From positions 1,280,001 through 1,344,000 of the forward strand of contig OY760937.1 of assembly GCA_963664225.1 (NCBI GenBank): 64,000 nt of DNA, given 5' to 3'. Positions within the stretch are counted from its first letter, which is position 1; each line of letters starts with the position of its first letter. This DNA is from Verrucomicrobiia bacterium (GTDB taxonomy: Bacteria > Verrucomicrobiota > Verrucomicrobiia > Limisphaerales > UBA1319). Both the position numbers and the translations under genes were made by a program. Positions 6,401-34,731 of this stretch are shown in pieces. Below the pieces are notes generated by a model that was given only the letters and a program-made list of their open reading frames with translations, did not search any database and was not told the origin of the DNA.

Positions 6401-8716
6401 CTGGATTTTGAAGCCGGTGCTCCAAAGTTGCACCTCGTCAAGCAGGCTATCAGTTCCCTTCAATCCTTCGTAGTCGAAGACGAGCAAACCGCAATCTTCC
6501 AGATTTGGCGCGGTCACCCGCCAACCGCGCTGGAGATCACGATAAAGGTAATAATCGATGACACGGCGAAGGGCGTCATTGGTGGCGTTCTTTGCTGGGC
6601 CGCGCACTTCCGGGTCGGCGGCGTATTCGTCGAACTGAAGCTGCATGGCCTCGAAGACCGAGCGCGAAAGTTCGCCGTGGTTGATTCCGGGGCCGCGTTT
6701 TTCCTGGGTCGCTTTATGAAGCGCCGACCGGAGCAGGGCCACTTGGGCGAAATCATTGAAGTGACCGGCCTGAAGCGAAGCATCCTGCCGGTTGTCCGTA
6801 AAACTGAGGAGTTTACGGGCCTCGGGGTTGAGATCGCGGTCGCGCTGCAATTCGATAAGCGAGCGGACCGCCAGGATAGTGGTTGCCGTGCTGCGATTAT
6901 CCACCCCGAGGGTGGCCAGCTTGGGGCGCTCTGAACGCTGGTTCCTGGTGTATGCCACACCGCATGATGGATGAAGGCAGAAGAGGAAGTTTCCATGGAT
7001 GAGCGCTGCCGGCATACCCTGGCCTTCGGAGACGAGTCGGCCCGTGGCGTCAACGAAGACGGGTTCTGGCATATCGGAGCGTGAGGAGGGAGCAATCCGT
7101 TCCACACCTTGAGGTGTGGTTTCCTTCATGAAGGCCGGGAGCCGCTCCAACAGTTCCGCTCCCTCGGTTCGTGGCCAGGGATGCGATGTGGAGACATAAA
7201 GATAAGCATCGCCATTGCCATCGTCACCTTCCTCACGGCGGTCCTCCCGCGGCAGCAGCGCTTTGCCCTGCTCAGTGGACACCGTTTTCACACGATGGTA
7301 TGCGGTGCCGCACTGACGACAAAAGACCAGGGGAAAGAGCAACTTGTCAGGCTCGCCAGGCTTGGAGCCTTTCTTGGACATTTCCAAGTGGCGCTGTGGC
7401 TCGGGTTCGAGAGTGGTCCAAACGGTGTCACCACGCGTGAAAAACTGATGCAGCCGGAACGCAAAGATGGGAAAGCGGCTCGATGCGCTTCGCCGGAGTT
7501 CGGAGCCCTTCAGCAGGTATTGGCGCAGCACCGCTTCGCAGCGTGGCGGTTCGGTAATGGTCAGGTGCGCAAGTTCTTCTGCGGCACTGTCAGAACCCTG
7601 CAAGCGCCGTGGTGCCTGCCGGATGAGACGGACAGTTCCTGCCTCGGCGCGGACACCAAAGGTTGTTTCGATCCAAGAGGCCAAAGGGTGAATTCGGAAG
7701 TGTTCGTAATCGTCGGGAGGCGGCGTTTCGGCCTGGATGGTGTCGCGCAAGGACTGAACCACTTTGGAGTCCTTGAAATCAACCTCCGGGGTAGCGCGTT
7801 CCAATGACTCACCAATCACCTGCGAAGCATCAAACGGGACACCCAAAAGCATCTTTGCAACATTGGCGACTTCGCGCTTCTGATCATCGGTAGAGCCACC
7901 ACTGGCCATTGTCGCCGAGGTGCCGACGCAGATAATGTCGTGGCCGCCGAAAGCTTGGCGGCAGCGGCGGATGAGTAGCGCTACGTCTGCACCCTGGCGC
8001 CCACGATAAGTGTGCAACTCATCGAAGACGAGAAAACGTAATCCCTGCGCGGCTCGGATTAGTTCGCGGTCCTCATGGCGCGTGAGGAGCAATTCCAGCA
8101 TCATGTAGTTCGTCAGCAAGATATCGGGCGGATTGCTGCAAATTAAGTCACGCTCTGGCCGTTTTTCCTGGCCGGTGTAGCGAGCGAAGCGAACGGGGGG
8201 CTTTCCTTCCGGGTATCCCTGTTTAAGGAACTTGCCAAGCTCCTCGTCCTGACTGTTAGCCAGGGCGTTCATGGGATATACGACGATACCTTGGATGCCT
8301 CGGCCTGAGCCACGCCGAAGAACATGATCCACAATCGGGACGATGTAAGTCAGACTTTTGCCGGAGCCGGTGCCGCTGGTTAGAACGTATGATTTGTTTT
8401 CCTTGGCTTTGCGAATGCCTTCAGTCTGGTGTGTGTGGAGAAGGAGTTGTTTGCCAGCCAGATCGGCCTGCGTTTTGTCGATGCGGAAGATTCTGGCACA
8501 TTCGGGGTGCAGGGTTCCGTCAGCGACGAGGTCGTCGATGGTGCCACCTGGCTGGAATGTTGGATTTAGCTGAAGGAGGGGTTCCGGCCAGAATGCGCCG
8601 GCATTGAGTTCGGAATCGACTTTTGAGAGAATGGACGCGTCGGCGATCTTTATGAAGCTCTTGGTATAGCTTGCGTAATCGTTAACCAGACGTTGCCGTA
8701 AATCGAAGACATTCAT
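3461..8716 (-). CDS. large DEAD/DEAH-box helicase with a DUF1998 (MrfA-like Zn) region and a C-terminal DUF559/Vsr-like nuclease domain
   Basis: Probable start MNVFDLR at 8716 (1751 aa). Motifs SGTGSGKS, PMNALANSQ, DELHTYRG, TSAT, TMELGVDI, QRSGRAGR, CGKACYECL, and terminal RPDFYY...IYIDGPPH. Confidence 0.9.
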   Translation of the reverse strand: MNVFDLRQRLVNDYASYTKSFIKIADASILSKVDSELNAGAFWPEPLLQLNPTFQPGGTIDDLVADGTLHPECARIFRIDKTQADLAGKQLLLHTHQTEGIRKAKENKSYVLTSGTGSGKSLTYIVPIVDHVLRRGSGRGIQGIVVYPMNALANSQDEELGKFLKQGYPEGKPPVRFARYTGQEKRPERDLICSNPPDILLTNYMMLELLLTRHEDRELIRAAQGLRFLVFDELHTYRGRQGADVALLIRRCRQAFGGHDIICVGTSATMASGGSTDDQKREVANVAKMLLGVPFDASQVIGESLERATPEVDFKDSKVVQSLRDTIQAETPPPDDYEHFRIHPLASWIETTFGVRAEAGTVRLIRQAPRRLQGSDSAAEELAHLTITEPPRCEAVLRQYLLKGSELRRSASSRFPIFAFRLHQFFTRGDTVWTTLEPEPQRHLEMSKKGSKPGEPDKLLFPLVFCRQCGTAYHRVKTVSTEQGKALLPREDRREEGDDGNGDAYLYVSTSHPWPRTEGAELLERLPAFMKETTPQGVERIAPSSRSDMPEPVFVDATGRLVSEGQGMPAALIHGNFLFCLHPSCGVAYTRNQRSERPKLATLGVDNRSTATTILAVRSLIELQRDRDLNPEARKLLSFTDNRQDASLQAGHFNDFAQVALLRSALHKATQEKRGPGINHGELSRSVFEAMQLQFDEYAADPEVRGPAKNATNDALRRVIDYYLYRDLQRGWRVTAPNLEDCGLLVFDYEGLKGTDSLLDEVQLWSTGFKIQVDRDVEQFIETPPPLQSCQPELREELLRTLLDVLRRSLAIKVDVLDPQKQLDLVEQTMPRLLEDTVWYLEDARELVKSVVAYPRPKQPMDRTGFFVSSYGSYGRYVKRLLRQHVPQGQNFGRPEVEQAIRFLFLALKRYGIVEQVRSGEVPGYQINADALRWLPAQGEIRPLDRTRLLEVGEIPPEVNRYFVECYRSFVDLKCVLEAREHTAQVTAEDREDREDRFRTGDLPLLFCSPTMELGVDIAQLNLVNLRNVPPTPANYAQRSGRAGRGGQPALVYTYCAGRSPHDQYYFREPHQMVAGFVAPPRIDIRNRDLVRSHVHAIWMEVATPDLGKTLATVLDLAAADGKIPLPVKDALGKELRNPIHRASALAKANSLIASIRDDLSTAAWFHENWTREVLDQIERAFDSACDRWRGLYRSALRQRELHHKIIGDHARPEAERNQSRRLRAQAESQIRLLTEAESIYEGDFYSYRYFAAEGFLPGYNFPRLPLSAYVPGRRKRKGRDEFVSRPRFLAISEFGPRALIYHEGARYRVYKVNLDFGSDDIEATHDLVTATMKRCPKCGYAHLEQGKNLVEVCDRCGAALDGPARIDNLVHLQNVSLKMAQRITCDEEERQRFGYKLVTSYRFPEIGGKLDRKDAEVYCGDTLAMRLSYGDATDLYRINLGWANQRGTQPPGFNLDLERGYWSRNQADDEDEDDATAQGRLQRVVPYVKDTKNALVMRIEPARSGPEMASLQSAFKQAILKHFQLEPRELSCEPMPSAKDRQEILFYEASEGGAGVLRQIAEDPTLIPLLARRALEILHFDADTLEDKGAKTCGKACYECLLDYFNQPDHKDLNRYLIRDLLSDLARSVCCPAGGAGSRAERLAALHKRCDSQLEKRWLDRIDSLLLRPPSDAQFLIESCTTRPDFYYREHNAAIYIDGPPHDGADQIRQDEAITQRLMETGYLVIRFHHKADWNEIFPRHPDVFGTPST

Positions 8717-8723
8717 GAGCACT

Positions 8724-8987
8724 TTATTGGATGCGGCCAGTCTGATCTGGAGGAAAGGCGGTTTTGGGAAGCAGTTCAGTGATGCCGTAAAGTGGGTTTG
8801 GCCGAGGCGACTTTCTCGCGGCATAAACGACCTGGACCCACGGTTCAATCTCGAACGCCAGGAAATTCCACAGGCTTCCAAGTTTGTGGACAAGAGTTCT
8901 ATTGCGAAAGATACGGCTATAAGTCGTGTCTGGATCGACGTCCAAGTGCGTCGCAATCTCTCCAAGTGACAGCCAATATGCTTGCAT
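8724..8987 (-). CDS. excisionase-like helix-turn-helix protein, apparently degenerate
   Basis: MQAYWLSLGEIATHLDVDPDTTYSRI...HKLGSLWNF...EIEPWV follows the W-L-S..EIA.HL...TIY.W...K.GRLW.F pattern with substitutions at conserved sites. Confidence 0.55.
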   Translation of the reverse strand: MQAYWLSLGEIATHLDVDPDTTYSRIFRNRTLVHKLGSLWNFLAFEIEPWVQVVYAARKSPRPNPLYGITELLPKTAFPPDQTGRIQ

Positions 8988-9530
8988 AAAAATCTGTGAC
9001 GAAGCCCTGATCGAGCCTCGGTCAGGAGCAGTAACCCTCAAGTTCCAAGCGACTCTGGAGAAGTCTGCCTAATTATGCCAGAACAAATCCATGCGAACAT
9101 ATTCGTTTGGAGCAGAACCTTTTGAGTGAAAGAGTGCCATTTTGGCCCTTAAGAACCACCCAAGGCTTCGATGTTGGAAGACTGAAGCGTTTGGGGGGAT
9201 GATTGTGGGGAATAGATGGTCTGGGATGGAATGACGGGGCCATATTAAAAAACGTGCGTCGCCGACTGGTGAAATCCGAAGTGTCTTCCAGAATATCGAT
9301 CCTACCGGTTTCTGTCCGGCAGCGGCGAATGGAGATTCGATGGGATGATTCAGGATTTGGACGTGTTAACAAGCGATCCCCTCGTAACGGTGCGGGTGCC
9401 GTGTGTATTTAGGAGCCATTCGAGAGGTTTTTGTTAACAAAACGTTAACAATGTAACTCTTTGCAGCGCAGTATTTAGAGAGTGTTTTTGTTCTGTTTTC
9501 TGTCTTTATTGCACCGTTAGGTGCATCTGG

Positions 9531-9646
9531 TGTGGGGGTTTCAAAGGGGGGCTTTCAGGGGAGGTGATTGTGGGGGGTTCAAAGGGGGGCTTTCAGGGGA
9601 GGTGATTGTTGATCGGGGCAAAAGGGGGGGATCTTGGGGGTGAGTC
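9531..9646. repeat. G-rich 38-bp tandem repeat (two near-identical copies plus a degenerate third)
   Basis: Copies of tgtggggg(t/g)ttcaaaggggggctttcaggggaggtgat at 9531 and 9569; a diverged copy starts at 9607. Confidence 0.85.
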
Positions 9647-9859
9647 TTTTTGAGGCGGCGCGGTGCGGAGTCGCGTCGGAGGTGGGTCAGAATGGCACCA
9701 AGCAGAAAGCCGCCCGGGATTGGGATGTCGAATCCGTTTCGTGATTTGGAAACGGGCGACAAGATGCCAAGCGGCGGGGGATATCGTATGGTATTTCTTG
9801 CCGGACACGGGACGGCGTCGCGGGGCTTTTGCGGGCAGCGGCCTACCGGGCTGTTCCTG

Positions 9860-10327
9860 TTAAGGTTTCCGCGGGCGCATTTCGTCATGTTCTTGGAAGG
9901 AGTAAAACCCCGCGTTACCAATGACCAGGTGATCTAATACGGGAATCCCCAGGAGTTCGCCCGCTTCCTGAAGTCGGTGCGTCACCGCGACATCCTCCGC
10001 GCTGGGGATGATTCCCCCGGCATTCTGACCCGAAGTATGGTTGTGAGCGACGATGATCGATGTGGCACCGGCCGCCAGAGCGGCTTGAAAAACTTCCTTG
10101 GCGCCGACGGGGCAACTGGAAGCCGTTCCCGTCGCGGCCACATAGTAGCCCATGACTTGGTTGCGGTTATCGAGAAACAGGGTTAAAAAATGCTCGCGGA
10201 CGTTATCCGGTAAAACCCGCCGCATGAATTCGGCCGCTTTCGCGGGTGAACCGACCGCGTCAAAAGTGACTCCCCGGCGTGGTCCTCGATATTTCAGCGA
10301 CACCTCACGAACAAAAACAACAGCCAT
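9860..10327 (-). CDS. radC: RadC-like JAB domain protein (short form)
   Basis: REHF..L.LD, EVFQAAL, AHNHTSG, PSAED..VT, LDHLVIG. Confidence 0.9.
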   Translation of the reverse strand: MAVVFVREVSLKYRGPRRGVTFDAVGSPAKAAEFMRRVLPDNVREHFLTLFLDNRNQVMGYYVAATGTASSCPVGAKEVFQAALAAGATSIIVAHNHTSGQNAGGIIPSAEDVAVTHRLQEAGELLGIPVLDHLVIGNAGFYSFQEHDEMRPRKP

Positions 10328-10393
10328 GTGTTTTCCTCCTCGGTTTTCTTGTGGAGGTCCGCGTCCATCAGGCGTGGACCTCCCATCATTAAG

Positions 10394-11299
10394 TTAAGCA
10401 GTCGCCTGCAAGACTTCGCGCTCCTCGTTCCCCCCGTCGGTGGGATCCTGAATGGGGATCTTCCCGCGGATAAAGTCGGCGGCGCGCTGGGCAGCCGAGG
10501 CCGCCCGAACAAGAATCCGGCTATCCTGCCGGAACACGCGCGCCCAGCCTTCGATGTAACTGGCCTGGAGCATTTCGGTGTCCGGATTCTGTATTCCCGC
10601 AAAGCCACACAGGAAGGCAGCGCCAAACTCAGCGACCAGCTCCTCGAAGGAATATTTTTCGACACGGTCGCCTTCGGCCTCGGCGAAGCGGTTCAAGCGC
10701 CGTGGATGGCCCGAGGAATGCACCAATTCATGGAAAAGGGTCGCGTAATACTCATCAGCACTCTCGAATTGGCTCAAGTGCGGCAAGGTGACGCGGTCCA
10801 AGCGCGGGCTGTAAGCGGGTTGCGCTATGATGGCATGGACGATTTCCGGTTTGTCGGGCATGACGTCGAGCATCTGATCGGCGAGCTGGACCCGGTCGTC
10901 AAGCCGGGGTTGGACGTCGTCATCGGGTCGTGCGACACCTTCGACTTGGTCGAGATTAAACACGGCGCTCACAAACGGCACGCAGGGAGCGATCTGTTGC
11001 TGGCCTGTGAGCTCGGCACGTCGGGCGAGTTCTTCGAGGGTGCGCCATTTCCAATAAACCACGGGCGTCGCGCGCTGGCCCTTACGGACGTGTCCGCCTT
11101 GGCGCTGGGCCTCCCGATAGGTGAGCCAATACGGGGAAGTGTATTCGGTGCAGCCCAGCACCAGAATATTAATACCGCGGTATTCCTTGGCGGTGGCGAG
11201 GCTCTTGGGCAGGCCCGTCTTCCAGGTCTTGCGCCAGGGGACTTGACCGGCGGCGAGTTGATTCAAAATGCGGGCGGTGACCGTTTCATAAATGCTCAT
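10394..11299 (-). CDS. ardC: ArdC-family anti-restriction protein (ssDNA-binding plus zincin-like domain)
   Basis: VPWRKTW, YRGIN, WLTYREA...GGHVRKG, VFNLDQ, HELVHSSGH, YSFEELVAE, SYIEGW. Confidence 0.92.
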   Translation of the reverse strand: MSIYETVTARILNQLAAGQVPWRKTWKTGLPKSLATAKEYRGINILVLGCTEYTSPYWLTYREAQRQGGHVRKGQRATPVVYWKWRTLEELARRAELTGQQQIAPCVPFVSAVFNLDQVEGVARPDDDVQPRLDDRVQLADQMLDVMPDKPEIVHAIIAQPAYSPRLDRVTLPHLSQFESADEYYATLFHELVHSSGHPRRLNRFAEAEGDRVEKYSFEELVAEFGAAFLCGFAGIQNPDTEMLQASYIEGWARVFRQDSRILVRAASAAQRAADFIRGKIPIQDPTDGGNEEREVLQATA

Positions 11300-12052: not shown

Positions 12053-13357
12053 TTACGGCTCGAGCAGTTTCATTTCGACCAGGACCGGACCGAGTTCGGT
12101 GAGCAGTTCCTGGGCTTCTTTGATGCGCTCGATGGCGTCGGGATAATGAAGATAGCTTGCTGAATTGATTTTCCAGCGCGGCCGCACCCGGTCGTTCGAA
12201 GAGGAAACAATGGATGCCATCGTGCTGCCCCCCTTGGGGGTTGACGCTAATGCACCGCTGTTCACGAGCCTGGTGAAGGAAAGCGGTTTCTTCTCGAGCG
12301 TGCTGCCTCTTATCTGCCAGTAACCGGGGGTGATGAAGGATGCCAGCTTGGCCTGAATTGCCGGGTCCGCCGCTTTCTTGCGGAGTTCAATCTTGTGCGC
12401 CTCGTCTCCGGCCGTCGCGACCGCCACCTTGTTTTTGGCTTCCTCCGTCTGCTGGTCGGCTTTCTTGATCAAGATATCGCGATCCAGCGCGGCCTTCTTT
12501 TCCTCCGACTCGGCGCGGATTTTCGCGGCCTCGCGGTTCGCCTCGTCAATTATTCGCTGGGCTTCCGCCTTGGCGAGCGTTTGAACCGCCTGATCTTTCG
12601 CCTCCGTAGTATTGTCTGCCAGCGTCTGACGAGTTTTGGTGGCGTCGGCTTCCGCCTGTTGCTGGAGGGCCACCTCGAGGGTCGGCGAACTCGGGCTGAG
12701 CGTGGCGGTGGTGTATTTAACCTTCGATTCCTGGATTAGCGAGGCAAGGACAGTGCGCACTTGCGCCACTTTCTGCAGATCCTGATTGGCGACGGACACT
12801 GCTTTCTGAGCACTGATTACGAGTTCCGGCTCGGGCTCATAAGCGGTCCCGGCTTGGGAAAGGATTTGCTGCTCCATCCGACGGGCGCCCTCCAACCGAG
12901 TGGTGATGTCCGGTGTTGGCGGCAGGTCCGGAATCTGCTTCTGGTAAAAGGCCCGGGTTTGATCGACGAGTTGTGGATACAAGGCGATGCGCTTGCCGTC
13001 CTCGTTGGTTTTGAGGGTGGTCGCGTCCAAGGTCAAACTGTTGACCTCCCTCAATAATTGCTCGAGTGCATTGGTTGCCACCTGGGTTTGTGCCAGCAGA
13101 TCTTTCTGACGGTTGGCTGCCATTGTGAGCTTGACTGCCTCAGCCCCTTTTTGGCGTTCCAGTTCATGTTGGTCCTGTGCCGCTTTCTGAGCCGCCATAT
13201 CGGTTCGAAGCTTGGCGTTCTCACGGTTCAGATAATAAAACACCCCGCCCACAGCGGCCAGGCCGACCAGGGTGAAAACCAAAAGCGCGAGGAATGCGGC
13301 CCAGATTGGAATGCCTTGGGGTTTGTCAGATTGAGGCTTGGATTGGGTTTTATTCAT
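12053..13357 (-). CDS. single-pass membrane, coiled-coil hypothetical protein at the end of the mob operon
   Basis: 434 aa with an N-terminal hydrophobic helix and long A/E/K/Q-rich heptads; 15 nt downstream of the coupling protein gene. Confidence 0.75.
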   Translation of the reverse strand: MNKTQSKPQSDKPQGIPIWAAFLALLVFTLVGLAAVGGVFYYLNRENAKLRTDMAAQKAAQDQHELERQKGAEAVKLTMAANRQKDLLAQTQVATNALEQLLREVNSLTLDATTLKTNEDGKRIALYPQLVDQTRAFYQKQIPDLPPTPDITTRLEGARRMEQQILSQAGTAYEPEPELVISAQKAVSVANQDLQKVAQVRTVLASLIQESKVKYTTATLSPSSPTLEVALQQQAEADATKTRQTLADNTTEAKDQAVQTLAKAEAQRIIDEANREAAKIRAESEEKKAALDRDILIKKADQQTEEAKNKVAVATAGDEAHKIELRKKAADPAIQAKLASFITPGYWQIRGSTLEKKPLSFTRLVNSGALASTPKGGSTMASIVSSSNDRVRPRWKINSASYLHYPDAIERIKEAQELLTELGPVLVEMKLLEP

Positions 13358-13371
13358 GATCGATGCGTGGC

Positions 13372-14994
13372 TCAGGGTTGTGTGTCTTCCGGGGGGAACC
13401 CGGGAAGATTGGGAGGCGGCAGCCGACGGCGGCCAGGCTTGGATCGGGCTCCAGCGGAGGCTTTCTTTGAAGTCGGCTTCAGGCCAAACAATGTTTTCTC
13501 TTCGTTAGCCGTCCATTCCTTGAGTTTCTGGCTCTCTGCGTCGGGGTGCGGCACGAACGCCTGGACCTCCTTGTCAGGCGGCCGCCGCCAGGCGTTTACC
13601 TCGTCGAACCACCGCTCGGTGATCACGATGCAATTCAGCCATGGGACATCGTGGACGGCTTTAAATTCTTTACGCGGACCGGTGAACGGCAGGTCCATGA
13701 AATAGGACGCCAACAAAGTGGGCCGGTCCTGAAGATTATATTGGACTGAAGTGGAATTTCCCGATTTGTCGCCACTACTCTCGCTGAAGACCGGCTCGGT
13801 GCGCCGGGTCTTGCCAAAATAACTCTCAGCCCAAGCCGCCGTTTTCGGATCCCCCAGCCGTAGAAAACTTTTGTTGGCGCACGCTCCCAAAATATCCTCG
13901 GCACGGTGCTCATTGTAGATATCTATCAAGCCCTCGATGGTTTGAAGGGCGAGCAGGACCGAGGCCCCTTTTGCCCGTCCGCGATTGAGCAGATTGTGAA
14001 TGGAGTCCACTTTTTCCATGGCGCGAAACTCGTCTAACACGAACCAGTGCCTGGGGCGGCGGTTGTTGGGACCGCGCAGGATTTCGTCCGTCAGCGCCTT
14101 GATCACGATGGCGTTGATCGGCCACAGACTTTCATGGAGCACGGGATCATATCCCAGCACCAACACACCGGGGCGTTGAAGAAACCTGTCGATGGAGAAG
14201 CGAGGTCCCGCTTCGCGGGTGTGCCACAGTGCGGCGACCTCCTCAAACCGGGCCAGCTTGGTGGTCAGGGTCGATAGCACCCCGAAAGCGTGCTTGTCGT
14301 CATTCAGGATGGCTCCTGCCAGCCGACTGGCACGTGTATGGCCGGTCGTCACGGCCACGATGTGTTCCTTCGAGTCCAGTGCGCAAAGCAAGTCGCGGAG
14401 AGTCCAGCGCGATTGCATAATCCGATTCAGTCCCCACATCGCATACACCACCAGATCGCGCGCGGCGGAGGCAAAGAAAGGCGACGTGGATGTGGGTTCC
14501 TGGGGCACCAAAAGCGTGGCGATATAGCGAGCCATGGCCGGGGTCTTCGCCGCCTCGGCGAGGTTCCAGACCGCACACCGTTCGTCGAACGGGTTCAAGA
14601 TCCAGAAGTTGTCCTGTCCGTGCCGCAGACCCAAGCCGGCCAGCGTGGGCAGAATGTCTCGCTTTGCGTCGAAGATAATCAACTGCTCCGGTTGCGTCCT
14701 GTTGGGGTGGAATCGCGGGGCGATGGACTGGAGGAATAAGTCAATCGCTGTCGTTTTGCCGGCTCCCACAGCCCCGGTAATCAGAAAGTGCTTCGCGGCT
14801 TCCTCGATCGGCATGTTGCGCATGGCCCAATAGACCTGATCTTCGTTGAAGCAGATCGCGCAGGGCAACTGTTGTCGCCGCGATTGCCGGCCCTTGCCGG
14901 ATTGCGTGGGTCTTGCGAGAATGCTTAGGAGCGAAGGTTCCGCCGCTTTCTCGCGAGCGACTTTGCCAAACATGTCCCAGAAGGAGCGGTTCAT
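13372..14994 (-). CDS. type IV coupling protein ATPase (TrwB/TraD-like) without an N-terminal membrane anchor
   Basis: HFLITGAVGAGKT, IIFDAK, LNPFDER...WN, FF..AAR, WFVLDEF, RGRAKGASVLL..Q. Confidence 0.88.
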   Translation of the reverse strand: MNRSFWDMFGKVAREKAAEPSLLSILARPTQSGKGRQSRRQQLPCAICFNEDQVYWAMRNMPIEEAAKHFLITGAVGAGKTTAIDLFLQSIAPRFHPNRTQPEQLIIFDAKRDILPTLAGLGLRHGQDNFWILNPFDERCAVWNLAEAAKTPAMARYIATLLVPQEPTSTSPFFASAARDLVVYAMWGLNRIMQSRWTLRDLLCALDSKEHIVAVTTGHTRASRLAGAILNDDKHAFGVLSTLTTKLARFEEVAALWHTREAGPRFSIDRFLQRPGVLVLGYDPVLHESLWPINAIVIKALTDEILRGPNNRRPRHWFVLDEFRAMEKVDSIHNLLNRGRAKGASVLLALQTIEGLIDIYNEHRAEDILGACANKSFLRLGDPKTAAWAESYFGKTRRTEPVFSESSGDKSGNSTSVQYNLQDRPTLLASYFMDLPFTGPRKEFKAVHDVPWLNCIVITERWFDEVNAWRRPPDKEVQAFVPHPDAESQKLKEWTANEEKTLFGLKPTSKKASAGARSKPGRRRLPPPNLPGFPPEDTQP

Positions 14995-14996
14995 AT

Positions 14997-15779
14997 TCAA
15001 TCGTATATTCCGGCGCGTCCCTGGGGATCGGAGGGATTAATGTTCTGTGGCCCCCCCACAATGATGTTGGCAGCCCCCAGATAGGCCGGCCAGAAGAAAC
15101 GGCACAACACCCAAGAGCCAGCCCACGAGACCACGAAAAGGCCGGCCAAAATGCTTGACCGCGTCCACCACGCCCCGATGAAATTCTGCGTCAGTAGGAG
15201 CAGGGTCAGGTAGTTGACGACCACTCCCAGCTTTACCAGCCCAGAGGTGTGGCACGAAAAGGAGGTCCAGACGTTCTTCGGCACCAGCAGCGCGGCCAAC
15301 AGGGCGAAAGCCGCAAAATACAATATCGACAGTGTCGCCTGGCCCACCCAATCCTTGGCATGATGCGTCTCCGTGTATCCCAGCATCCACCAAAGCAGGG
15401 TCAGGCTCAACAGGAGGTAGCCCCACTGGATGCGTCTGGTCGTCTTGTCATCAATGCGCTTTACGGACCTCCGCCAACGTCGGCGCAAAGGCGTCAAGGT
15501 CAACTCGACCGCAGCAGCGACGGTCATGGGCTGACCGCAGTGGATACAGTTGCGTGCGCGCAATGGGGAGGTCCGTTTGCAGGTAGGACATCTGAGAGAA
15601 GTGATTCGGGTTAACCAGCGGCCGAGGCTGCGCGCGAAAATGGCCAGCAGTGTGAAGGGACCGAAGACCTTGCCGCAATGAGAACAAGAACGGTCAAACA
15701 GACTCAAGCCGTTCCCACATTCGGAACAAGCGAGTATTATGCGTTCAGTGCGAGTGTCCCTGGTCCTTCGATTTGGCAT
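14997..15779 (-). CDS. double zinc-ribbon membrane protein (about 4 TM helices)
   Basis: CSEC...CSHCG and CPTC...CIHCG followed by hydrophobic segments. Overlaps the relaxase end and abuts the coupling protein start. Confidence 0.75.
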   Translation of the reverse strand: MPNRRTRDTRTERIILACSECGNGLSLFDRSCSHCGKVFGPFTLLAIFARSLGRWLTRITSLRCPTCKRTSPLRARNCIHCGQPMTVAAAVELTLTPLRRRWRRSVKRIDDKTTRRIQWGYLLLSLTLLWWMLGYTETHHAKDWVGQATLSILYFAAFALLAALLVPKNVWTSFSCHTSGLVKLGVVVNYLTLLLLTQNFIGAWWTRSSILAGLFVVSWAGSWVLCRFFWPAYLGAANIIVGGPQNINPSDPQGRAGIYD

Positions 15780-17754
15780 TTTTTTGAGCTGGCCGTTTCG
15801 ATTTGTGCGACGGTTTGAATGCCTTCCACTTTGACTTCTTTAGCGTGAAACGCAAGGCTAAAGCGGTCCGTCCATAAAACGGGCTCCATTGAGGGGCGTT
15901 TCGGAAAAGGATGCGATCCTGGAGGCGCACCTCAAACAGTTTGAAGTCCTTCTTCCATTTTATAGTCCACCAACGCGGATCACGATTGCCCACGACAATC
16001 ACCGGCGCCTTTAATTTCCTGGCCGGACTCCAGTTCGGGGCCTTGGGAAACAATTGCTTCCACTCGATGCGAATGAAGGCTGGCCGCTCGGGAACTCGTT
16101 TGTTGCGGGTGCCGCTTTGTGCCGGGCGCGCTTTTGTGTCCGGCTTTTTTCGACCCTTGTCCTGACGGGCATTTTTCGCACTCGCATTGCCGGTGCCGTG
16201 GCCTTGCTCCCGATTCCCCTGGCGCGCCTCTTCAGGCGGATCCCAAAGATCAAGGGCGTGTTGAGCTTTCTGGCCGCTCGCAGCGCTTTCTGGCCAAGCG
16301 GACTGCTGGTCAGTAGGAGTGATCCTTTCCTTCGCCTTCAATTGGCCGGATTTCTTCGTGGGGAACGGTTTCGTTTCGGACCCAACCGTTTGCTTTTGGT
16401 CGAATCCGGGCTCATTCTCGGTGCGATTGCCCGTTAACTGGCTTGGTTCAACCCGCGGTGGGGGGATGAGTTCTCCAGGCAACGAACCCAATAAACTGCG
16501 TTGATCCGCCTGGTCTGATGCCAAACCCGTATGCTTGGTGGCAGCGGCTTCCTGTTTTAGCCCCGCCTCGCGAACGGACTGCCGTGACGCGGGCGGCTCA
16601 TGTTGTTCATGGTGGCCTTCGTGTTGTGACATGGTCCGGTCCTGCCAACGCGGCTGCCAGAGAACCCCACGACCGTCCGACATGCGAAGTTGGGTCAGAC
16701 TTTGGAAGAGCGTTTGGCCGTCGGCCCCTTTTTGGAGGGCGATCCCAGCCGCCAGGCGGATCAGCGGCGCGCGCGCTTGTTTTTCCCGGGGAGCCTCATG
16801 AACGGCTTGCCCGACCAACTTATCCAACGTCTCCGTCCGGATGGAATCCTGCCTTTCAGCGCCGATGAGCTTCATTGCCTGCTCGCGGCTCCAGCCATAC
16901 TCCTTGCCCTTCTCCTGCCAGTGGGCGAAGAGCAGGTCCGGAGCCGCCTCTTCCTTGTGCGGACGTGTCGCCTTTGCGACCGTTTGCGCCGCCACCGCCC
17001 CCGTTAGTCCGCGCTCGTTCATCGTCTGTTTGATGGTTTGGCCGCGCTTCGAGAAATAGCGACAGAGTTCTTGGGGAACCCCACGAATTCCGAAACCAAC
17101 TTTTTCCGGTTCGATGTTCAGACCCAGCCGTTGGTTAAGCTTGGACGCTAGGTCCGCCTGATAGATTGCTCCCAGGGCCATTTTCCAACGAAAGAGATTC
17201 AGAGTGGAGATCGACCCGTAGGTCCCGCTCTGGCGGCGACCGAGATTGATCAAGACGGCATGGGTGTGCAGGTGCGGATCCTGTGCCCGCGACGTGCCCT
17301 CCTGGAACGTGGCCCAGAGCAACTCCGCAGGCTCCTTGATTTTGCCTCCAGGGCCGGTTCGCGTGATGCCGCCAATCTCTTCGGCAATTCTCAGCGTCGT
17401 ATGGAGCGCCTCCCGGCGGCATTCCTCAATCTGACGCCGGACGTCCAGTGGCGACATCGCCCAAAACGTCGAAACCGCCTTTGGGTCGTTGAATGTCATG
17501 TCCCAGCACGCCTGCCGATCCGGATGACCCGCATTTTGGACCAGCCCCTTCCCTCCATCCGGTGAGAAACCGTTCAACAGGTTGCGAAACTCCTCCCGTT
17601 GCACGGTCTGCCCCAATCCCAGGGGCTGCGCCGCCTTTCCAAACCACAGCCCTTTCTTGTCGATGCCATTGAGGTAGTAATCCTCCTTGCGTTCGTCCGT
17701 GTAATAATCGACGGCGGCGGCCGCACTTTTCATCGGGTGGGAGAGAGAGAGCAT
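15745..17754 (-). CDS. MOBF (TrwC-type) relaxase without a helicase domain
   Basis: DYYTDERKEDYY (two YY pairs), W.GK.A..LGL, D.TF..PK.VS, TSRAQDPHLHTH, FSKR; low-complexity C-terminal half. Confidence 0.92.
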   Translation of the reverse strand: MLSLSHPMKSAAAAVDYYTDERKEDYYLNGIDKKGLWFGKAAQPLGLGQTVQREEFRNLLNGFSPDGGKGLVQNAGHPDRQACWDMTFNDPKAVSTFWAMSPLDVRRQIEECRREALHTTLRIAEEIGGITRTGPGGKIKEPAELLWATFQEGTSRAQDPHLHTHAVLINLGRRQSGTYGSISTLNLFRWKMALGAIYQADLASKLNQRLGLNIEPEKVGFGIRGVPQELCRYFSKRGQTIKQTMNERGLTGAVAAQTVAKATRPHKEEAAPDLLFAHWQEKGKEYGWSREQAMKLIGAERQDSIRTETLDKLVGQAVHEAPREKQARAPLIRLAAGIALQKGADGQTLFQSLTQLRMSDGRGVLWQPRWQDRTMSQHEGHHEQHEPPASRQSVREAGLKQEAAATKHTGLASDQADQRSLLGSLPGELIPPPRVEPSQLTGNRTENEPGFDQKQTVGSETKPFPTKKSGQLKAKERITPTDQQSAWPESAASGQKAQHALDLWDPPEEARQGNREQGHGTGNASAKNARQDKGRKKPDTKARPAQSGTRNKRVPERPAFIRIEWKQLFPKAPNWSPARKLKAPVIVVGNRDPRWWTIKWKKDFKLFEVRLQDRILFRNAPQWSPFYGRTALALRFTLKKSKWKAFKPSHKSKRPAQKNAKSKDQGHSH

Positions 17755-17756
17755 AT

Positions 17757-18068
17757 TCAGTTGCGGTTAAGCATGGTTTTCACCCAGTCACGCGCTTGTT
17801 TCTCGCTGACCCGCCCTGCGGAGGCCAACAGGGCTTCCACGGCCAGGGCCAGGTCTTTATTCAATTGCTGCATTTGTTGATGCACAATGCCAACGGCGTT
17901 GCCCACCGCCGCAAGTCCCTCTGCCGCGAGCAGGCTCTCGACAACGTAATGCCGGGCCAGTTCGTGCGGACTGACACCCAGGCGGGCAGCGCGTTCGGCC
18001 AGCAGGCCCGCCTGGTCGGGTTCAAGGCGAAAACCGATGACGACACGAATCTGAGACGGGGATTTCAT
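17757..18068 (-). CDS. probable ribbon-helix-helix relaxosome accessory protein
   Basis: VIGFRL...L.ERA..LGVS.HELAR..V; lies 3 nt upstream of the relaxase. Confidence 0.65.
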   Translation of the reverse strand: MKSPSQIRVVIGFRLEPDQAGLLAERAARLGVSPHELARHYVVESLLAAEGLAAVGNAVGIVHQQMQQLNKDLALAVEALLASAGRVSEKQARDWVKTMLNRN

Positions 18069-18403
18069 CGGGTGGGACGGTTAGAGTTGGCGAGGAGTAG
18101 TCCGGCCGCCGGGCCACCATTGGGCGGGGTGCGACGCTGGTTCTTCTGTCGCCAATGGTGTTGGAGGGTGTTGGTGACCCGCGCCAGCCACGCCGGGTCC
18201 CGGGAGAGTTTGAGAATCTCCGGCGTCGCGAAGAACTTGGTCCCGTTCGGGGATGGGTTGCCGAGGGGCTTGAGTACGCGGGCGGCCACGAGGATGGCGA
18301 TGTCATGCGGCTGGCAATTGAGCACCCAGGCGGTTTGCTCGACGGTCAGGCGTGCTGGCGTGCCGGCCAACAGGGACAGAAACTGGCGTTGTTCATCGTT
18401 CAT
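18065..18403 (-). CDS. putative HTH DNA-binding protein, first gene of the mob operon
   Basis: PARLTVEQTAWVL....DI.IL.....LKPLG; 4-nt overlap with the next gene. Confidence 0.65.
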   Translation of the reverse strand: MNDEQRQFLSLLAGTPARLTVEQTAWVLNCQPHDIAILVAARVLKPLGNPSPNGTKFFATPEILKLSRDPAWLARVTNTLQHHWRQKNQRRTPPNGGPAAGLLLANSNRPTR

Positions 18404-18542
18404 GGTTTTGGAGAGGGCTGGACCGGGGACGTCCCGATCTGGCCTTCCAAAGGGTCCAGTCGTTGGAGGGAGTGATTGCGAACAAAATATTTGATTAAAT
18501 TCTGCAGTTGAAGCGCGCGGTTGATTTCTTTAGGTTGCGGTC

Positions 18543-19130
18543 GTGGCCAATGAATTAGTCGCGTTAGCCCACGTCTGCCGTGACACAACCGAACTCCACG
18601 AGCGCGTGCGATTTGCCGAGGAGATCGTGGTGCGGGTCGGTCCAATGCTGCGCGTGTTTGTGGCGAGGCGATGTCCTCCGGCAGCAGTCGATGATGTCGT
18701 GCAGGAAACTTTGATCGGCATCGGCAGAGGTGCGGGCTGCTTCCATGGCAAAACGGATCGCGAGTTCTGGCGCTGGTGTTACAGGATAGCGTTTAATAAG
18801 CTGACCAACCACCTTCGCCGGGAAGGTGTCCAGCAGACCGCGTCCCTCGATAACGAGGAGATCTGGCGTGCCGTCGAGGCCACCATGGAGGACTCGACGA
18901 TGCAGCCCGGAGATCGCCTGGACCTCGAAGAGGCGATGGATCTTCTCCGTCAATCCAAACCGCCCTGCGTGGGTTATTTGACTTTACACTTCATCGAGGG
19001 CTTGGATCCTGCCGAACTTGCAGAGCTTTACCACTCCACCCCCAGTGCCATCCGAATGCAGATCATCCGGTGTTTGTCTTTGGCGCACAAAATGCTAACC
19101 AAATCCTCCTCCATTTATGAGCAACGATAA
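18543..19130 (+). CDS. ECF-type RNA polymerase sigma factor
   Basis: DDVVQET, F..W.YRIA.NK...H.RR (region 2) and a C-terminal HTH (ELAEL....SAIR..I.R). Confidence 0.8.
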   Translation: MANELVALAHVCRDTTELHERVRFAEEIVVRVGPMLRVFVARRCPPAAVDDVVQETLIGIGRGAGCFHGKTDREFWRWCYRIAFNKLTNHLRREGVQQTASLDNEEIWRAVEATMEDSTMQPGDRLDLEEAMDLLRQSKPPCVGYLTLHFIEGLDPAELAELYHSTPSAIRMQIIRCLSLAHKMLTKSSSIYEQR

Positions 19131-19398
19131 CACCAAAGAGGCCGCGAAACTGAGCCAGCTCGGCGAACGGGCGCGCGCGGGTTTGGCCAAGTTGCATCCA
19201 GTCAGCGAGCAGCATCTGGCCGCCGTCCGTGCCGCCGTCCGCCAACAGTGGGATCAGGAGCATGCGGGCAAGTCATCCTCCAAGACGCAACAATCTGCCG
19301 GGCAATCGCAATTAAATCAGCCACCGTCCGCGCAACAGGCGCAGGCCGCGAAGCCGAAGCGGCAGTCCAAATCACAAGACCACGGTCACAGCCATTGA
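19117..19398 (+). CDS. small hypothetical protein (93 aa) with a relaxase-like C-terminal tail
   Basis: Overlaps the sigma stop by 14 nt. Helical N-half, Q/S-rich linker, ends SKSQDHGHSH. Confidence 0.7.
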   Translation: MSNDNTKEAAKLSQLGERARAGLAKLHPVSEQHLAAVRAAVRQQWDQEHAGKSSSKTQQSAGQSQLNQPPSAQQAQAAKPKRQSKSQDHGHSH

Positions 19399-19538
19399 GT
19401 GACCGTCCTGGCCGAAGGGTGAGGATTGATTAAAGGCTCAATCCCCGAAAGCCGTGAACCCTCGAGCCAACAGCGGAAGACATTTGGTCCTTTGGTAATT
19501 GGCTATTGTCCTTTGGTTTTGATAATTGGCATTTACCG

Positions 19539-19799
19539 TTATGCGGACGGTTCTTCCTTCTCCTGGCCTTGCTTGAAGATCCAGGTGTGTGACAGGTCGG
19601 CGACCTTGCGGAGCACCAGCAGGTCATCCCGCCCGAAGGAGTCGGTCGATTTCCACTGGTCGTCTTCCTTTTCTTTGTAGATGCGGCTGAACGTGACGTT
19701 GTAGCGCACACCCCCGGCCGTGTCGTTCTTCCAGATGGCGGCCTTGACGGTGCCGATCCGGATCTCTTGTATGGGTCTGTCTTTGGGTTTGAGCATCAT
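19539..19799 (-). CDS. small conserved hypothetical protein, possibly nucleic-acid binding
   Basis: P..EIRIG.VKAAIW.N....YNVTFSR.YK....WKST.SFGRDDL, a pattern seen on PVC mobile elements. Confidence 0.7.
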   Translation of the reverse strand: MMLKPKDRPIQEIRIGTVKAAIWKNDTAGGVRYNVTFSRIYKEKEDDQWKSTDSFGRDDLLVLRKVADLSHTWIFKQGQEKEEPSA

Positions 19800-20151
19800 A
19801 TCTTTCTTGGTTTTGAACCTCCCTGAAATGACCTTTAACCCGAGTCCTGCCACCCAGTCCGCCAACCAAAAAGGCGCGGACGGTCTTTTCGACCAGGGTG
19901 ACAGGCCCCGCCGGTCCCAATCCTCTGGTGTCGATGTTTCAGGGTCTGGTTCCATTTTGGAGGCGGTGGAGCGCGTCTGCGCCCCAAACAACCGCCATCC
20001 CGTCACCTTTCCAGTCGCAGCGGACCCTGCATTCCGAACAGGAAAGTTTTCCCGGCTCGCCGTTTGGAGCGGCTTCCGCCCTTAATCTCGTCGGAGAGAC
20101 GAGAAAATCCGACCGCAAGGCGGCATCAAATTCCGCGCGAACGGGCAGGAT

Positions 20152-25726: not shown

Positions 25727-26347
25727 CTACTGAAGGTAGCCCAATTCGCGTAAGGATAGGAAATCCTTGGGCCGTTCGGTGGTGGCCTGGCCCAGGATGA
25801 TATGGTCCAGAACCTCGATTTTGAGCAATTGGCCCGCTCGGACTAGCTCGCAGGTGACTTTGATGTCAGCCGCACTGGGGGTGGGGTCGCCGCTGGGATG
25901 ATTATGCGCGAGAATAATGGCCGCCGCCCGATGGGCTATGGCTGTGCCAAAAACTTCGCGCGGATGGACCAGAATGGTGTCCAAGGTGCCCTGGGAGATG
26001 GTTTGCACCGCAATCAGGCGCCGACGGGAGTTCACCAGGATCGTCTGGAAAACCTCAACGGTGTAAAGCCGGTTTCGCTCACGCAACAGGTCCGCCACAC
26101 GTTCCGGGGCGTCCAGCATGGGCGGCTCGATAATGGTCTCGTGGCTGAGGCGCTGGGCGAGAAGGAAGGCCGATTTGATGGCGGCAGCGCGTGATTTGCC
26201 TACGCCTTTGATTTGTTGGAGTTCGTTGAGCGAGACCTGCGCCAGCTTGGTCAGCCCTCCGTATTCTTCCATCAGCATTGTCGCGGCCGATTTGCCGGCC
26301 AGCGTGGAAAGCAGGTCAACATTGCTGGCGTGTTCGAAATGCTCCAT
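25727..26347 (-). CDS. radC: RadC family protein (HhH plus JAB)
   Basis: IKGVGKSRA, GTLD..LVHPREVF, AHNHPSGDPTPS..D, LDHIILG. Confidence 0.92.
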   Translation of the reverse strand: MEHFEHASNVDLLSTLAGKSAATMLMEEYGGLTKLAQVSLNELQQIKGVGKSRAAAIKSAFLLAQRLSHETIIEPPMLDAPERVADLLRERNRLYTVEVFQTILVNSRRRLIAVQTISQGTLDTILVHPREVFGTAIAHRAAAIILAHNHPSGDPTPSAADIKVTCELVRAGQLLKIEVLDHIILGQATTERPKDFLSLRELGYLQ

Positions 26348-26950
26348 GGCTTGATCCCTCCCTTCGATGGGACGAATCTTACCACTGTTTGAATCCTTAA
26401 GGAACAATTTGGAGGCCGTGTTCTATTGCAATGACCGTGCCATGGATTGGCCGGATACGACGTGTTACATGTTACACCGAAGTGGAGGTCCGAAGACCGG
26501 CGGCATCGGGGCGACGAGGCCCGGGCGCACGCCCCTTGGATCGCGGGCCTCGCAGCCGAGCGGAGCGAGGGGCACCTTGGGCCGCCGCAGTTGAGGGCCG
26601 GAACTATGCCTGGATAGGCTTGAATTGGCATCTCACTTCACACGGTAGATTATGAACTGCTCTGGCAATATTCGTGAGCCTATCGTCGGCAAGCTCGCCG
26701 TACAATCAGTTCGGGTTCCACTGACAACGCGTGGGCAATACCTATCCTTTGGCGCTGGCCGCAACTTCAAATTATGGGAACACTGAACGGATTGTTTTTA
26801 AGGGTTCATTTCGCTTGCACTATCGCCGTCATCATCTACGTTTTGAGACTCTTGAAGCGGTTTGTGGGTGCTCATGAGCGAGTTGCGAGCGCTCTTGAGA
26901 GCGAATCTCGTATGATGCGAGAGAATAGTAAGCCATGGAAGTATTATTTT

Positions 26951-27234: not shown

Positions 27235-28128
27235 TCATTTCTCATGTGCCTTAAGCGCCTCGAATCCTGAAATCACGTCAAAAAGTTCCTCGTCAATGCC
27301 GCTCTGGCGCAAACGGTGGAACGTACCGTGAAGATGTTCCATCAAGTCATCAATATTTTTATCGGCGCGCTGCATCGCCGCCAGGCGGCTCGCGTTCTCG
27401 CTCGCGAGGGATTCGGCGCACGCCCTGAACAGCGAGATGAACAGATACTCGCGAATGAGAGCGCGCAACGTCGCTGTGCCTCCACCCATGACTTCAGGCA
27501 AGGTCTTTGTCGGCCATGGAACTTTGGCCAGACTCTGAGCCCACGCCCCATCGAGCGGCAGCAATCGTTGGCTAACCGGTTCATAGAGCGCCCCGGATTG
27601 CGGGCGGTTGTGAAAGACGTAAAGCTGCGCATACTCACCTTCCGCCCGGTGCGCTTCGCTTTCAATTTGAATCTCTCCAACGAGCGGAGTAATGGCCCGG
27701 ACGGAATTCGGGATGGCGAACAATCCTATAGGCGGCAAGCCCGCATCCGTCAGCCGCGCGTGAACACGCTCACCGACGGCCCAGACATGGGGTTTGCCAG
27801 GTAGAGCGGCCAGAGTCTTAACCGCAAAATCGGCCACCACATCGTTGAACTGGCCGACCAGTCCTTGATCTGAACCAAACACAACTGCGCCAATCGCACC
27901 GGCATCGGTTTGTCCTCTCCGTTCCACCAGTAAAGTCGCAGGTTCGTTTTCCCGAAAACACGCGCCCAACCCCAACTGCACGGTTCGATAGTAGTCGCCT
28001 AACGCGTGCACAGATTTCTCGTATTGACCGATGCTCGAAGCAGCCAGTGCTTTCATCGTGCGGACGACGGATTGGAGATCCCCAGCACTGCTTATTTTCC
28101 GGCGCAAACTCGCTGTGGTGTCGCTCAT
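27235..28128 (-). CDS. atpG: N-ATPase gamma subunit
   Basis: [35 protein letters not shown]. Confidence 0.93.
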
Positions 28129-29918: not shown

Positions 29919-30832
29919 TGGCTCTTTTTCGCGAGCATAGGTTCTTCCGGTTTAGTTTCGACCTCGGCTTCAGTTTTCGGTTCGCCTTTGGCTTCGGGCT
30001 TAGTTTCGACTTTAACTGCGGATTTAGTTTCGGGTTTGGCTTCAGGTTTAGGCTCGGCTTTGGGTTGTGGCTTGTCCTTCTCTTTCAGAAGTTCACCGAT
30101 GCCTTTTTCCAGCGACGCGAGGTAATCTGCGATGCTCCAACCGACTTTTTGCCCATTAATGGTGAGTTCAATCCCACTGACCAGGTCGGGCGCGGTTTCA
30201 AACCGAAGGGGAATGTCAGCCGAGAAAGTTTCGTTGAGTGCATTCTGTATCGTCGCGCGTTGGTCGGCGGCCAGTCCAAACGCACTGCGCACGAGAACAG
30301 GCACCGACGCGGTCCTGATGGCCTCGGCGAGGCTGACTTTCGCCTTGCCGTCCATCTCGCGCAAACGACGCGTGAACACTTCGCCCATCCGCTCTTCCAA
30401 ACTCGTCGTAGCGAGATCCGCCAGCGCCTTTCGCGCGATGGCAAACACTTCCTGCTGCGTCCGGCGACTGATGGCTTGATTCAGGTTGCGAGCGTCGTTG
30501 GTCAGCGATTCCTGTCGCTTCGCACTCAAGGCGTCAGCAGCCTTGCGCGCTTCGTCAAGCAATCGCTGACGTTCGGCTTTCGCCTCGTCCGTCGCCTTGG
30601 TCAAAAGTGCGGCGCGCTGCTGGTCGAACTCCTCGTTCTTATGCTGGAACTCGTCACGATCCTTTTGAGCTTCGGCCTTTTTTGCATCGGCGTCCGCAAG
30701 TTCTTTTGCGATCCGCTTCTCACGCGCGTCAATCGCGTGGAGGATGGGCTTGTAAAGAAAGCGCTTCATCAGCCACACCAGGATAAGGAAGTTGAGCGCC
30801 TGCGCACCAACGGTGAACCAGTCAATCAACAT
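29915..30832 (-). CDS. atpF: N-ATPase b subunit (long, with delta-like C-terminal region)
   Basis: [25 protein letters not shown], coiled coil, L..GIEL. Confidence 0.92.
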
Positions 30833-30836
30833 AGGA

Positions 30837-31127: not shown

Positions 31128-31157
31128 AAAATGTCCTTTGGTTAGTTCTTTATTGTT

Positions 31158-32157: not shown

Positions 32158-32474
32158 GGTCATCCTCCTGTTCGTCCCGCATGGCTTTTTCTTCCTTGGC
32201 CACCCAAAACCACGCATTCAAACAGCCGATCGCCAGCCCACCAACCAGCAAGGCCAGTGTCCAGGAACGGCCTCCCGGATGGTGTTTGTCCAACCAGATT
32301 CCAAGCGCAGCACCTAGCAGCGTCGGAACGACCACCGACCATCCAATCAGCCCCATCATCCCCAAGCCGAACCAGACACCCTGCGTGGAGTTGCGCGCCT
32401 TGAGCTTGCGCGTTGCCTTCGCACCGACCTGCTCAGCAAGAGTCGGCCTGCTTTTCGAGGATTGTTTTGGCTCG

Positions 32475-32482: not shown

Positions 32483-34731
<2,249 letters not shown>

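Follow-up and report, generated by a model that had tools for sequence, protein, structure and literature searches.

Organization of the locus

We analysed a 64,000-nucleotide stretch of DNA (the window) from a Verrucomicrobiia bacterium, corresponding to positions 1,280,001 to 1,344,000 of contig OY760937.1 in assembly GCA_963664225.1; coordinates are those of the window unless genome positions are stated. The right-hand portion of an integrated mobile element of plasmid-like character falls in the window, and the subject of this study is a short C-terminal peptide found on two proteins of that element, a TrwC-type relaxase of 669 residues encoded on the minus strand (15745–17754) and a small protein of 93 residues, named sm93, encoded on the plus strand (19117–19398). 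The sm93 gene lies directly after the gene of an extracytoplasmic function (ECF) sigma factor (18543–19130, plus strand), and the two are divergent from the relaxase operon on the minus strand.

The relaxase comprises a TrwC relaxase domain (residues 12–284; 16903–17721, minus strand; PF08751, E = 2.5e-65), a long low-complexity linker, a beta-rich C-terminal domain (residues 561–637; 15844–16074, minus strand), a basic stretch and the tail KSKDQGHSH (residues 661–669; 15748–15774, minus strand), which ends at a TGA stop codon (15745–15747). Its translation contains N-terminal YY...YY tyrosines in VDYYTDERKEDYYLNG and an HLHTH motif in DPHLHTHAV, which we take to be the catalytic tyrosines and the three-His metal motif from their likeness to TrwC. 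A helicase domain as in TrwC and TraI, typical of such relaxases and not strictly defining, was represented by no Pfam helicase family, and the linker and the beta-rich domain stand in its place. AlphaFold2 predicted the C-terminal domain with a mean predicted local distance difference test score (pLDDT) of 80, with five beta strands at model residues 22–98, and the domain carries two AP.WSP repeats. It belongs to no known family, and no fold match was obtained for it, the best results being E = 2.0 in Foldseek and Z = 3.7, to small OB/Mop-like barrels, in a wide VIA-align search; a tblastn search of the PLSDB plasmids with the C-terminal 130 residues of the relaxase returned no match.

In sm93, a helical hairpin (residues 3–50; 19123–19266, plus strand), which is the predicted sigma-binding part, is followed by a disordered linker rich in Q, S and K and by the tail KSQDHGHSH (residues 85–93; 19369–19395, plus strand), with a TGA stop codon at 19396–19398. 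The AlphaFold2 model showed helices at residues 3–26 and 31–50 and pLDDT values below 50 for residues 56–83. No Pfam family matched sm93, no relative was found by sequence among the solved chains of the PDB (best E = 3.2), and the ESM Atlas returned look-alikes in unnamed clusters (best score 0.86) that provided no lead.

The relaxase and sm93 end in the same rare peptide

The relaxase ends in KRPAQKNAKSKDQGHSH and sm93 in KPKRQSKSQDHGHSH; over the final nine residues the two agree at seven positions (K S x D x G H S H). The codons of the two tails, AAA TCG AAG GAC CAG GGA CAC TCG CAC TGA in the relaxase and AAA TCA CAA GAC CAC GGT CAC AGC CAT TGA in sm93, contain four synonymous differences. 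Both the common motif KSxDxGHSH-stop and these four differences had been reported in a preliminary description of this DNA, and the translations and codons bear them out. The same description called both linkers Lys/Arg-rich, which suits the relaxase (12 Lys/Arg in the last 40 residues) better than sm93 (5 Lys/Arg), whose stretch ahead of the tail is less basic and otherwise Q/S-rich; these counts compare with 1 D/E. Both tails have the features of type IV secretion system (T4SS) signals in being C-terminal, net positive and unstructured, the last of these as judged by their disorder in both AlphaFold2 models.

To assess the rarity of the motif, the 5,783,426-base genome was translated in six frames from stop to stop, giving 110,932 frames of at least 30 residues. 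The pattern [KQ]D.GH..-stop was found in the relaxase and sm93 only, D.GHS[HY]-stop in three frames, the third being a 44-residue frame at genome positions 2,496,023–2,496,157, and GHSH-stop in four. A third GHSH-ending open reading frame (ORF) in the window (48757–49056, plus strand, 99 residues, ending ...YGHSH) lies outside the element among glycosyltransferase genes, has no family and is overlapped by ORFs on the opposite strand; it was set aside as probably a chance occurrence. A DNA pattern for DHGH[ST]H-stop had five matches in 401 Verrucomicrobiota genomes, namely the sm93 gene itself, three sites ending in TGG and hence without a stop, and one that ended no frame of at least 60 residues, and the reversed control pattern had one match; this sample left out the genomes holding related loci and thus shows the rarity of the tag only. 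Within the own genome and the 401 genomes of the phylum, the tail was restricted to the TrwC (MOBF-type) element family. Moreover, no protein of the related loci or of the element in the window carries the tail besides the relaxase and the small protein.

Conservation of the tail in the two protein families

Related loci (L001 and so on) were compared, and all of those with an organism name come from Verrucomicrobiota metagenome-assembled genomes (MAGs). Close homologs of the relaxase end in TDHGHSH and KDHGHSH (P0012, P0013), KDHGHTH (L004), KAHGHSH (L005), KDHGHAH (L041) and NEHGHSH (L042), and distant homologs in SHTYSH (L003), NTQSH (L001), MSQGH (L044) and NRITH (L045). A HMMER search with the last 130 residues of the relaxase defined a C-terminal-domain family of 115 representatives at 50% clustering. 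In this family, 51 of the 115 end in SH and 63 in [ST][HY], compared with 13 SH ends among the 6,131 frames of at least 200 residues in the own genome; S occupies position −2 in 71 and H position −1 in 67, GHSH forms the end of 11 and D.GHSH that of 6. By this comparison, KSxDxGHSH is the local, full form of a C-terminal S-H end that runs through the whole relaxase family. The two other TrwC relaxases of the own genome (946 and 958 residues) have no such tail.

In the window, the tail codons of the relaxase overlap the start of the next gene, ZnR260, by 35 bases. This arrangement is confined to the window, where (15735–15779) the usual ATG of ZnR260 reads ATA and the sole in-frame start is found 35 bases within the relaxase gene, so that ZnR260 has a longer N-terminus, MPNRRTRDTRTE, that the four related loci L001, L003, L004 and L005 do not have. 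Since the overlap is absent from these four loci, a constraint from the overlapping frame was ruled out as the cause of the conservation of the relaxase tail.

A copy of the sequence with about 3% differences over 15000–20000 is present on contigs from two metagenome runs on peat; none of the 40 differences listed (146 further rows) falls in the tail codons 15748–15774, and nothing was concluded from this. No RNA sequencing run holding the sequence was found among the runs listed. In L046, the main relaxase is broken over several frames (8975–10406) and ends in ...LSRSR, and a second, partial TrwC-like ORF (15234–16412) ends in ...GHSYGHSY.

For sm93, a first search yielded 10 homologs and a profile search 75 cluster representatives. 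The ending D[HY]GH[STGE][HY] is present in 55 of the 75, GH[STGE][HY] in 59, and a final H or Y in 65. In the 76-sequence alignment, the mean frequency of the top residue was 0.65 for residues 1–52, 0.30 for the linker (53–85) and 0.75 for the last eight residues, and S at −8, S at −2 and G at −4 were as conserved as the His residues. The exceptions are a replaced tail in L007, L020 and L021, a 5′-truncated copy in L010 and L026–L028, a divergent clade (L001, L002) ending in GHDHEQSQ or GHDHEQGH, and the decayed locus L046, where the tail is missing. The loci L007 and L010 belong to one MAG and, as also in L020, L021 and L026–L028, carry the gene as two partial copies on separate contigs, one encoding residues 1–88 with a foreign tail and the other residues 29–93 with a normal tail; the gene appears to have been split, with duplication of the overlap, by a rearrangement or an insertion.

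Among the loci, the third codon positions of the sm93 tail vary (GAC/GAT, GGA/GGC/GGG/GGT, CAC/CAT, AGC/AGT), which argues for selection on the peptide. Judged from these sequences, selection acts on the tail peptide in both proteins. The preliminary description had proposed just this, rather than a recent duplication of DNA, and had named loss of the tail from homologs as evidence to the contrary; instead, the tail is kept in homologs of both proteins, with synonymous codons varying.

sm93 is a candidate partner of the ECF sigma factor

The sigma factor (195 residues; ECF, group 4) matches Pfam Sigma70_r2 and Sigma70_ECF, and among solved structures its profile matches are sigma-E (1or7, E = 1.5e-12, positions 28–177) and CnrH (4cxf). 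According to the Pfam and 1or7 profile matches it contains regions 2 and 4 only. The stop of the sigma gene overlaps the start of sm93 by 14 bases on the same strand, and in 17 of 23 related loci a sigma gene immediately precedes sm93; in the remaining six, one pair is cut by a contig end, four have a 5′-truncated sm93, and one has a full sm93 gene and no sigma gene.

A predicted complex of the sigma factor with sm93 scored 0.74 (runs 0.84, 0.66 and 0.74), compared with 0.00 for the best control, a mark that 116 of 157 solved complexes and 2 of 215 mismatched pairs attained. The runs had at least 50% of their contacts in common, with a partner pLDDT of at least 53, and the confident interface brought residues 18–62 of the sigma factor (N-terminal extension and region 2) together with residues 20–45 of sm93. 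The model thus supports the prediction that sm93 binds the ECF sigma factor through its two N-terminal helices. Because of this predicted binding and its place directly after the sigma gene in 17 of the 23 loci, sm93 looks like an anti-sigma-type regulator. It has no Cys and hence is not a zinc anti-sigma factor (HxxxCxxC). NepR and CnrY are minimal two-helix anti-sigma factors, the latter solved with CnrH in entry 4cxf, and sm93 resembles them in its very short helical, putatively sigma-binding part and in a gene adjoining that of an ECF sigma factor; it differs from them in having no similarity to a solved chain or a Pfam family and in bearing a tag in common with a relaxase.

The transfer module and a promoter-like motif

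The relaxase operon starts with o112 (18065–18403, minus strand), which belongs to no family and is syntenic in L003, L008, L042, L045 and L046. The following gene, o103 (17757–18068, minus strand), is always immediately ahead of the relaxase in the related loci and probably encodes a ribbon-helix-helix relaxosome accessory protein, an assignment resting on weak Pfam matches (NikA-like, E = 0.034; RHH_1, E = 0.088) that lie below the cut-offs of these families. After the relaxase come ZnR260 (14997–15779, minus strand), a membrane protein with two CxxC...CxxC zinc ribbons (Pfam DZR, Zn_ribbon) and hydrophobic segments at residues 148–166, 178–196 and 208–226, and a type IV coupling protein, a P-loop ATPase of the TrwB/VirD4 type (13372–15000, minus strand, 542 residues; PF10412, E = 4e-55; also PF12696 and PF02534), whose gene overlaps that of ZnR260 by 4 bases (stop/start). 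No N-terminal membrane anchor was found in the coupling protein, as no 19-residue window reaches a hydropathy of 1.6; a hydrophobic stretch opens the coupling-protein-like ORF that neighbours one of the genome's two other TrwC relaxases. The next gene, cc434 (12053–13357, minus strand), always follows the coupling protein and encodes a protein that belongs to no family and has a single membrane segment, at its N-terminus, besides a long charged helical region. In the window, and in all nine related loci with DNA downstream of the relaxase, the genes of relaxase, ZnR260, coupling protein and cc434 adjoin one another. These features suggest that coupling is divided here between a soluble ATPase and ZnR260 as its separate membrane partner.

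A bipartite motif, GTTCGC-N15-CGACTG, is located at 18457–18483 on the minus strand, 54 bases upstream of the start of o112 (18403). A second copy (20012–20039, minus strand) lies just upstream of o155 (19539–20006, minus strand), ending 6 bases ahead of the GTG start listed for o155 in the window. The general form GTTCG-N15-18-CGACTG had 22 matches in the 363,557 bases of the window and the related loci, against about 0.7 expected by chance on our own estimate, and these matches are not independent, some loci being near-identical copies; in the window alone there were 2 against 0.39 expected, a number reached in 6 of 100 shuffles. The motif stands ahead of the relaxase operon, in the same place and orientation, in the window, L001–L005, L008, L017, L022, L042 and L045, and ahead of o155 in the window, L004, L006 and L025. 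With its two conserved boxes and variable spacer of fixed length, it has the form that a promoter of an alternative sigma factor would be expected to have. Upstream of the sigma gene itself, conserved blocks GCGAAC and GTTGA were seen by eye, and no −35/−10 pair could be assigned there.

Interpretation of the tail as a docking tag

A fixed peptide at the extreme C-terminus that is kept in two unrelated proteins, and limited to those two, suggests a common protein reader, and with the motif almost always strictly terminal, a reader that binds a free C-terminus would fit well. We propose, with a probability of about one half, that the tail serves as a C-terminal tag for docking and that its reader is the transfer module of the element. 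Its full form would be S-x-D-H-G-H-S-H-COOH and its minimal, family-wide form x-S-H-COOH, with a disordered, basic or polar stretch ahead of it. In the proposed circuit, the tag of the relaxase would be recognised by the anchor-less coupling ATPase together with ZnR260. The small protein would hold the sigma factor with its two helices and leave its tagged tail free, and the sigma factor would probably drive the relaxase and coupling-protein operon from the conserved GTTCG-N16/17-CGACTG promoter-like site. Through the same tag, sm93 and the relaxase would meet the same reader, and sm93 would then either be removed by that reader, exported or sequestered, or be displaced by the relaxase; in either case, the activity of the sigma factor would follow the state of the transfer machinery. 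That the second carrier is a putative sigma-binding regulator, whose sigma factor probably drives the relaxase operon, suggests such a coupling of machine and expression.

The coupling protein is the favoured reader of the tag because it has precedent as the reader of a C-terminal relaxase signal. In the excerpt of PMC10025392 considered here, T4SS coupling proteins read positively charged C-terminal signals, including that of the relaxase MobA (last 48 residues), so that the general background invoked in the preliminary description is of a known kind. The signals of the VirB/VirD4 system treated there (VirF, VirE2, VirE3, MobA) resemble the tail described here in being short, unstructured, basic and C-terminal and in being common to a relaxase and to non-relaxase proteins, and they are read through the coupling protein. 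They are loose Arg-rich signals with no fixed end, whereas here a fixed octapeptide, or at least an S-H end, is found; their second carriers are effectors, whereas here the second carrier is a predicted sigma-binding regulator, in an element that has no channel of its own, and translocation would be putative. The Bartonella BID domain with its positively charged tail, which the same excerpt also places on some conjugative relaxases and other substrates, is comparable to the relaxase studied here in the order of a folded domain and a charged tail (PMC10025392); the domain found here, however, is small, beta-rich and without a fold match, and sm93 has the tail without the domain. In the F plasmid, the C-terminal tail of TraD binds TraM, so that a short terminal peptide links the coupling protein with the relaxosome (PMC3159463, in excerpt); in that system the coupling protein bears the peptide and a relaxosome protein reads it, whereas here the bearers are the relaxase and a putative regulator. 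Furthermore, non-relaxase proteins are described as travelling through conjugative channels (PMC8406263, in excerpt).

The preliminary description had interpreted the tail as a translocation signal and sm93 as a co-transferred effector. The first half agrees with a conserved, C-terminal, signal-like tag; the second is only partly supported, as the sigma-adjacent gene and the complex model make sm93 look like a regulator and not just an unrelated cargo. Because no other protein of the element carries the tail, a regulatory link to the relaxase fits better than a general effector signal.

Several points weigh against the docking-tag interpretation. The tails of the relaxase and sm93 show no tight co-variation, as L045 combines NRITH with GHGHSH and L001 combines NTQSH with HDHEQSQ. 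The tail of sm93 lies outside the confident interface with the sigma factor, so the complex model is silent on it; this model was built on shallow alignments of our own (6 and 15 rows), and its score may be partly a memory of the solved sigma/anti-sigma complexes 1or7 and 4cxf. The motif is a candidate ECF promoter on the grounds of form and place only. The sequence D-H-G-H-S-H is also a plausible metal site. The tag, its conservation in both families, the gene order and the motif are observed, sigma binding has the support of a model, and the identity of the reader, the use of the motif by the sigma factor and any export are inferred. Finally, searches of the genome (completeness 96%) with PF03135, PF12846 and PF19044 detected no VirB4-type ATPase, and the element is without a recognisable mating channel. 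Given this and a TrbI/VirB10 and VirB5-like cluster at 2.76 Mb of the genome, the element looks mobilisable, with a private coupling protein and a channel needed in trans.

Alternative explanations

The simplest alternative, that the likeness of the two tails is a functionless product of chance or of a recent DNA copy between the genes, is scarcely credible. Short motifs can recur, and GHSH-stop does so four times among the genome frames, but the motif is unique genome-wide once the D and K/Q positions are counted, it is kept in both families at 35–75% identity with synonymous codon changes, and the linkers flanking the two tails are unlike. The tail might instead mark the two proteins for degradation through a host protease or adaptor, which would make the relaxase and the anti-sigma factor short-lived and let transfer functions occur in pulses. 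Its strictly C-terminal position at the end of disordered stretches, its restriction to two carriers per element, and the fact that regulated proteolysis is the usual way in which anti-sigma factors are removed would all suit such a degron. We nevertheless regard it as rather unlikely, since we know of no C-terminal degron class resembling S-H-COOH and since a host tag would be expected on host proteins, whereas this one was found on this element family only, in the 401 genomes of the phylum and the own genome.

Similarly improbable, in our view, is a metal site in which D-H-G-H-S-H would chelate Zn, Ni or Cu through HxHxH, the Asp and the C-terminal carboxylate, so that sm93 would be a metal-responsive regulator and the tail would supply or sense the divalent metal of the HUH relaxase; the likeness of the tails would then reflect chemistry and not a common reader. 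HUH relaxases use a His-bound metal, three His or His/Tyr occur at alternate positions in 55 of the 75 small proteins, and the relaxase in the window has H-x-H. The relaxase family, however, conserves the terminal S-H, many of its tails have a single His (QSQSH, QQRSH, NTQSH), the motif has a constant length and a strictly terminal place that the typical, variable His-rich metal tails do not have, and in sm93 the two Ser residues and the Gly are conserved like the His residues. A docking tag could also have a different reader, such as the active site of the relaxase (the tag being an autoinhibitory plug whose place the tail of sm93 may take), cc434, o155 or a host factor. This would account equally well for the conservation and the sharing of the tag; its His and carboxylate could ligate the HUH metal, and the promoter-like motif is common to the relaxase operon and o155. 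We hold it to be less likely again, as no direct evidence points to such a reader and it is less economical than the coupling protein, for which reading C-terminal signals has precedent.

A possible FlgM-like checkpoint and its significance

A tentative extension of the docking-tag interpretation, which is more likely wrong than right, is a conjugation checkpoint resembling that of FlgM. FlgM, an anti-sigma factor that is small and mostly disordered, is removed by the secretion machine, and sigma-28 is thereby freed for the genes of that same machine. In the corresponding form of the circuit, an active coupling protein or channel would remove the tagged anti-sigma factor, by export or capture, and free the ECF sigma factor; the freed sigma factor would drive the relaxase and coupling-protein operon, and newly made tagged relaxase would compete for the reader and reset the switch. 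Like FlgM, sm93 is small, largely disordered and putatively of the anti-sigma type, with a sigma factor putatively driving the genes of the same machine. FlgM leaves through the flagellar type III apparatus, whereas here export would have to be by a type IV system; the tag in common with the relaxase and the promoter-like motif before the relaxase operon are circumstantial grounds for it. A full-text literature search returned, among its top matches, no report of a type IV system removing or exporting an anti-sigma factor. If true, it would be the first example of a sigma factor gated, by way of substrate mimicry, by a type IV coupling machine.

To our knowledge, the recognition of relaxases by coupling proteins is poorly defined in most systems, the known signals being loose and mostly internal. 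The fixed minimal tag on a whole relaxase family would be a convenient starting point for experiments on binding, structure and tail swaps. The same tag on a putative sigma-binding regulator suggests that the expression of transfer genes may be wired directly to the transfer machine, a wiring that we know from flagella and injectisomes and not from conjugation. In addition, the comparison brings to light a conserved family of integrated, plasmid-like elements in Verrucomicrobiota, with an unusual, apparently split coupling module and with defence cargo.

Other features of the element and a second element

On the minus strand after cc434 lie o132, ArdC and RadC, and to the right of sm93 lie o155, a replication initiator (PF10134) and ParA. 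Two RadC-like JAB-domain genes (9860–10327 and 25727–26407, minus strand) are situated near either end of the conserved plasmid-like core, the latter being the last element-like gene before an ATP synthase operon (27235–34668). The left cargo (618–8965 in the window and 1,261,458–1,280,341 in the genome, L011) is defence-like and includes a Piwi-domain protein adjoining a DpnII/MboI-nuclease-domain protein, a 1651-residue Eco57I-type methylase and three very large helicases, one with an MrfA zinc-binding domain. A tyrosine recombinase is encoded at the far end of the element (genome positions 1,261,458–1,262,564).

A second element at genome positions 2,754,000–2,786,000 (L050, L051) carries TrbI/VirB10, a VirB5-family protein, a coupling protein and the 946-residue TrwC relaxase, together with several unassigned ORFs and a sigma region-4 protein. 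Its cargo, which comprises a DncV-like cyclase, a patatin phospholipase and an E1/E2 fusion, looks like a cyclic-oligonucleotide-based antiphage signalling system (CBASS).

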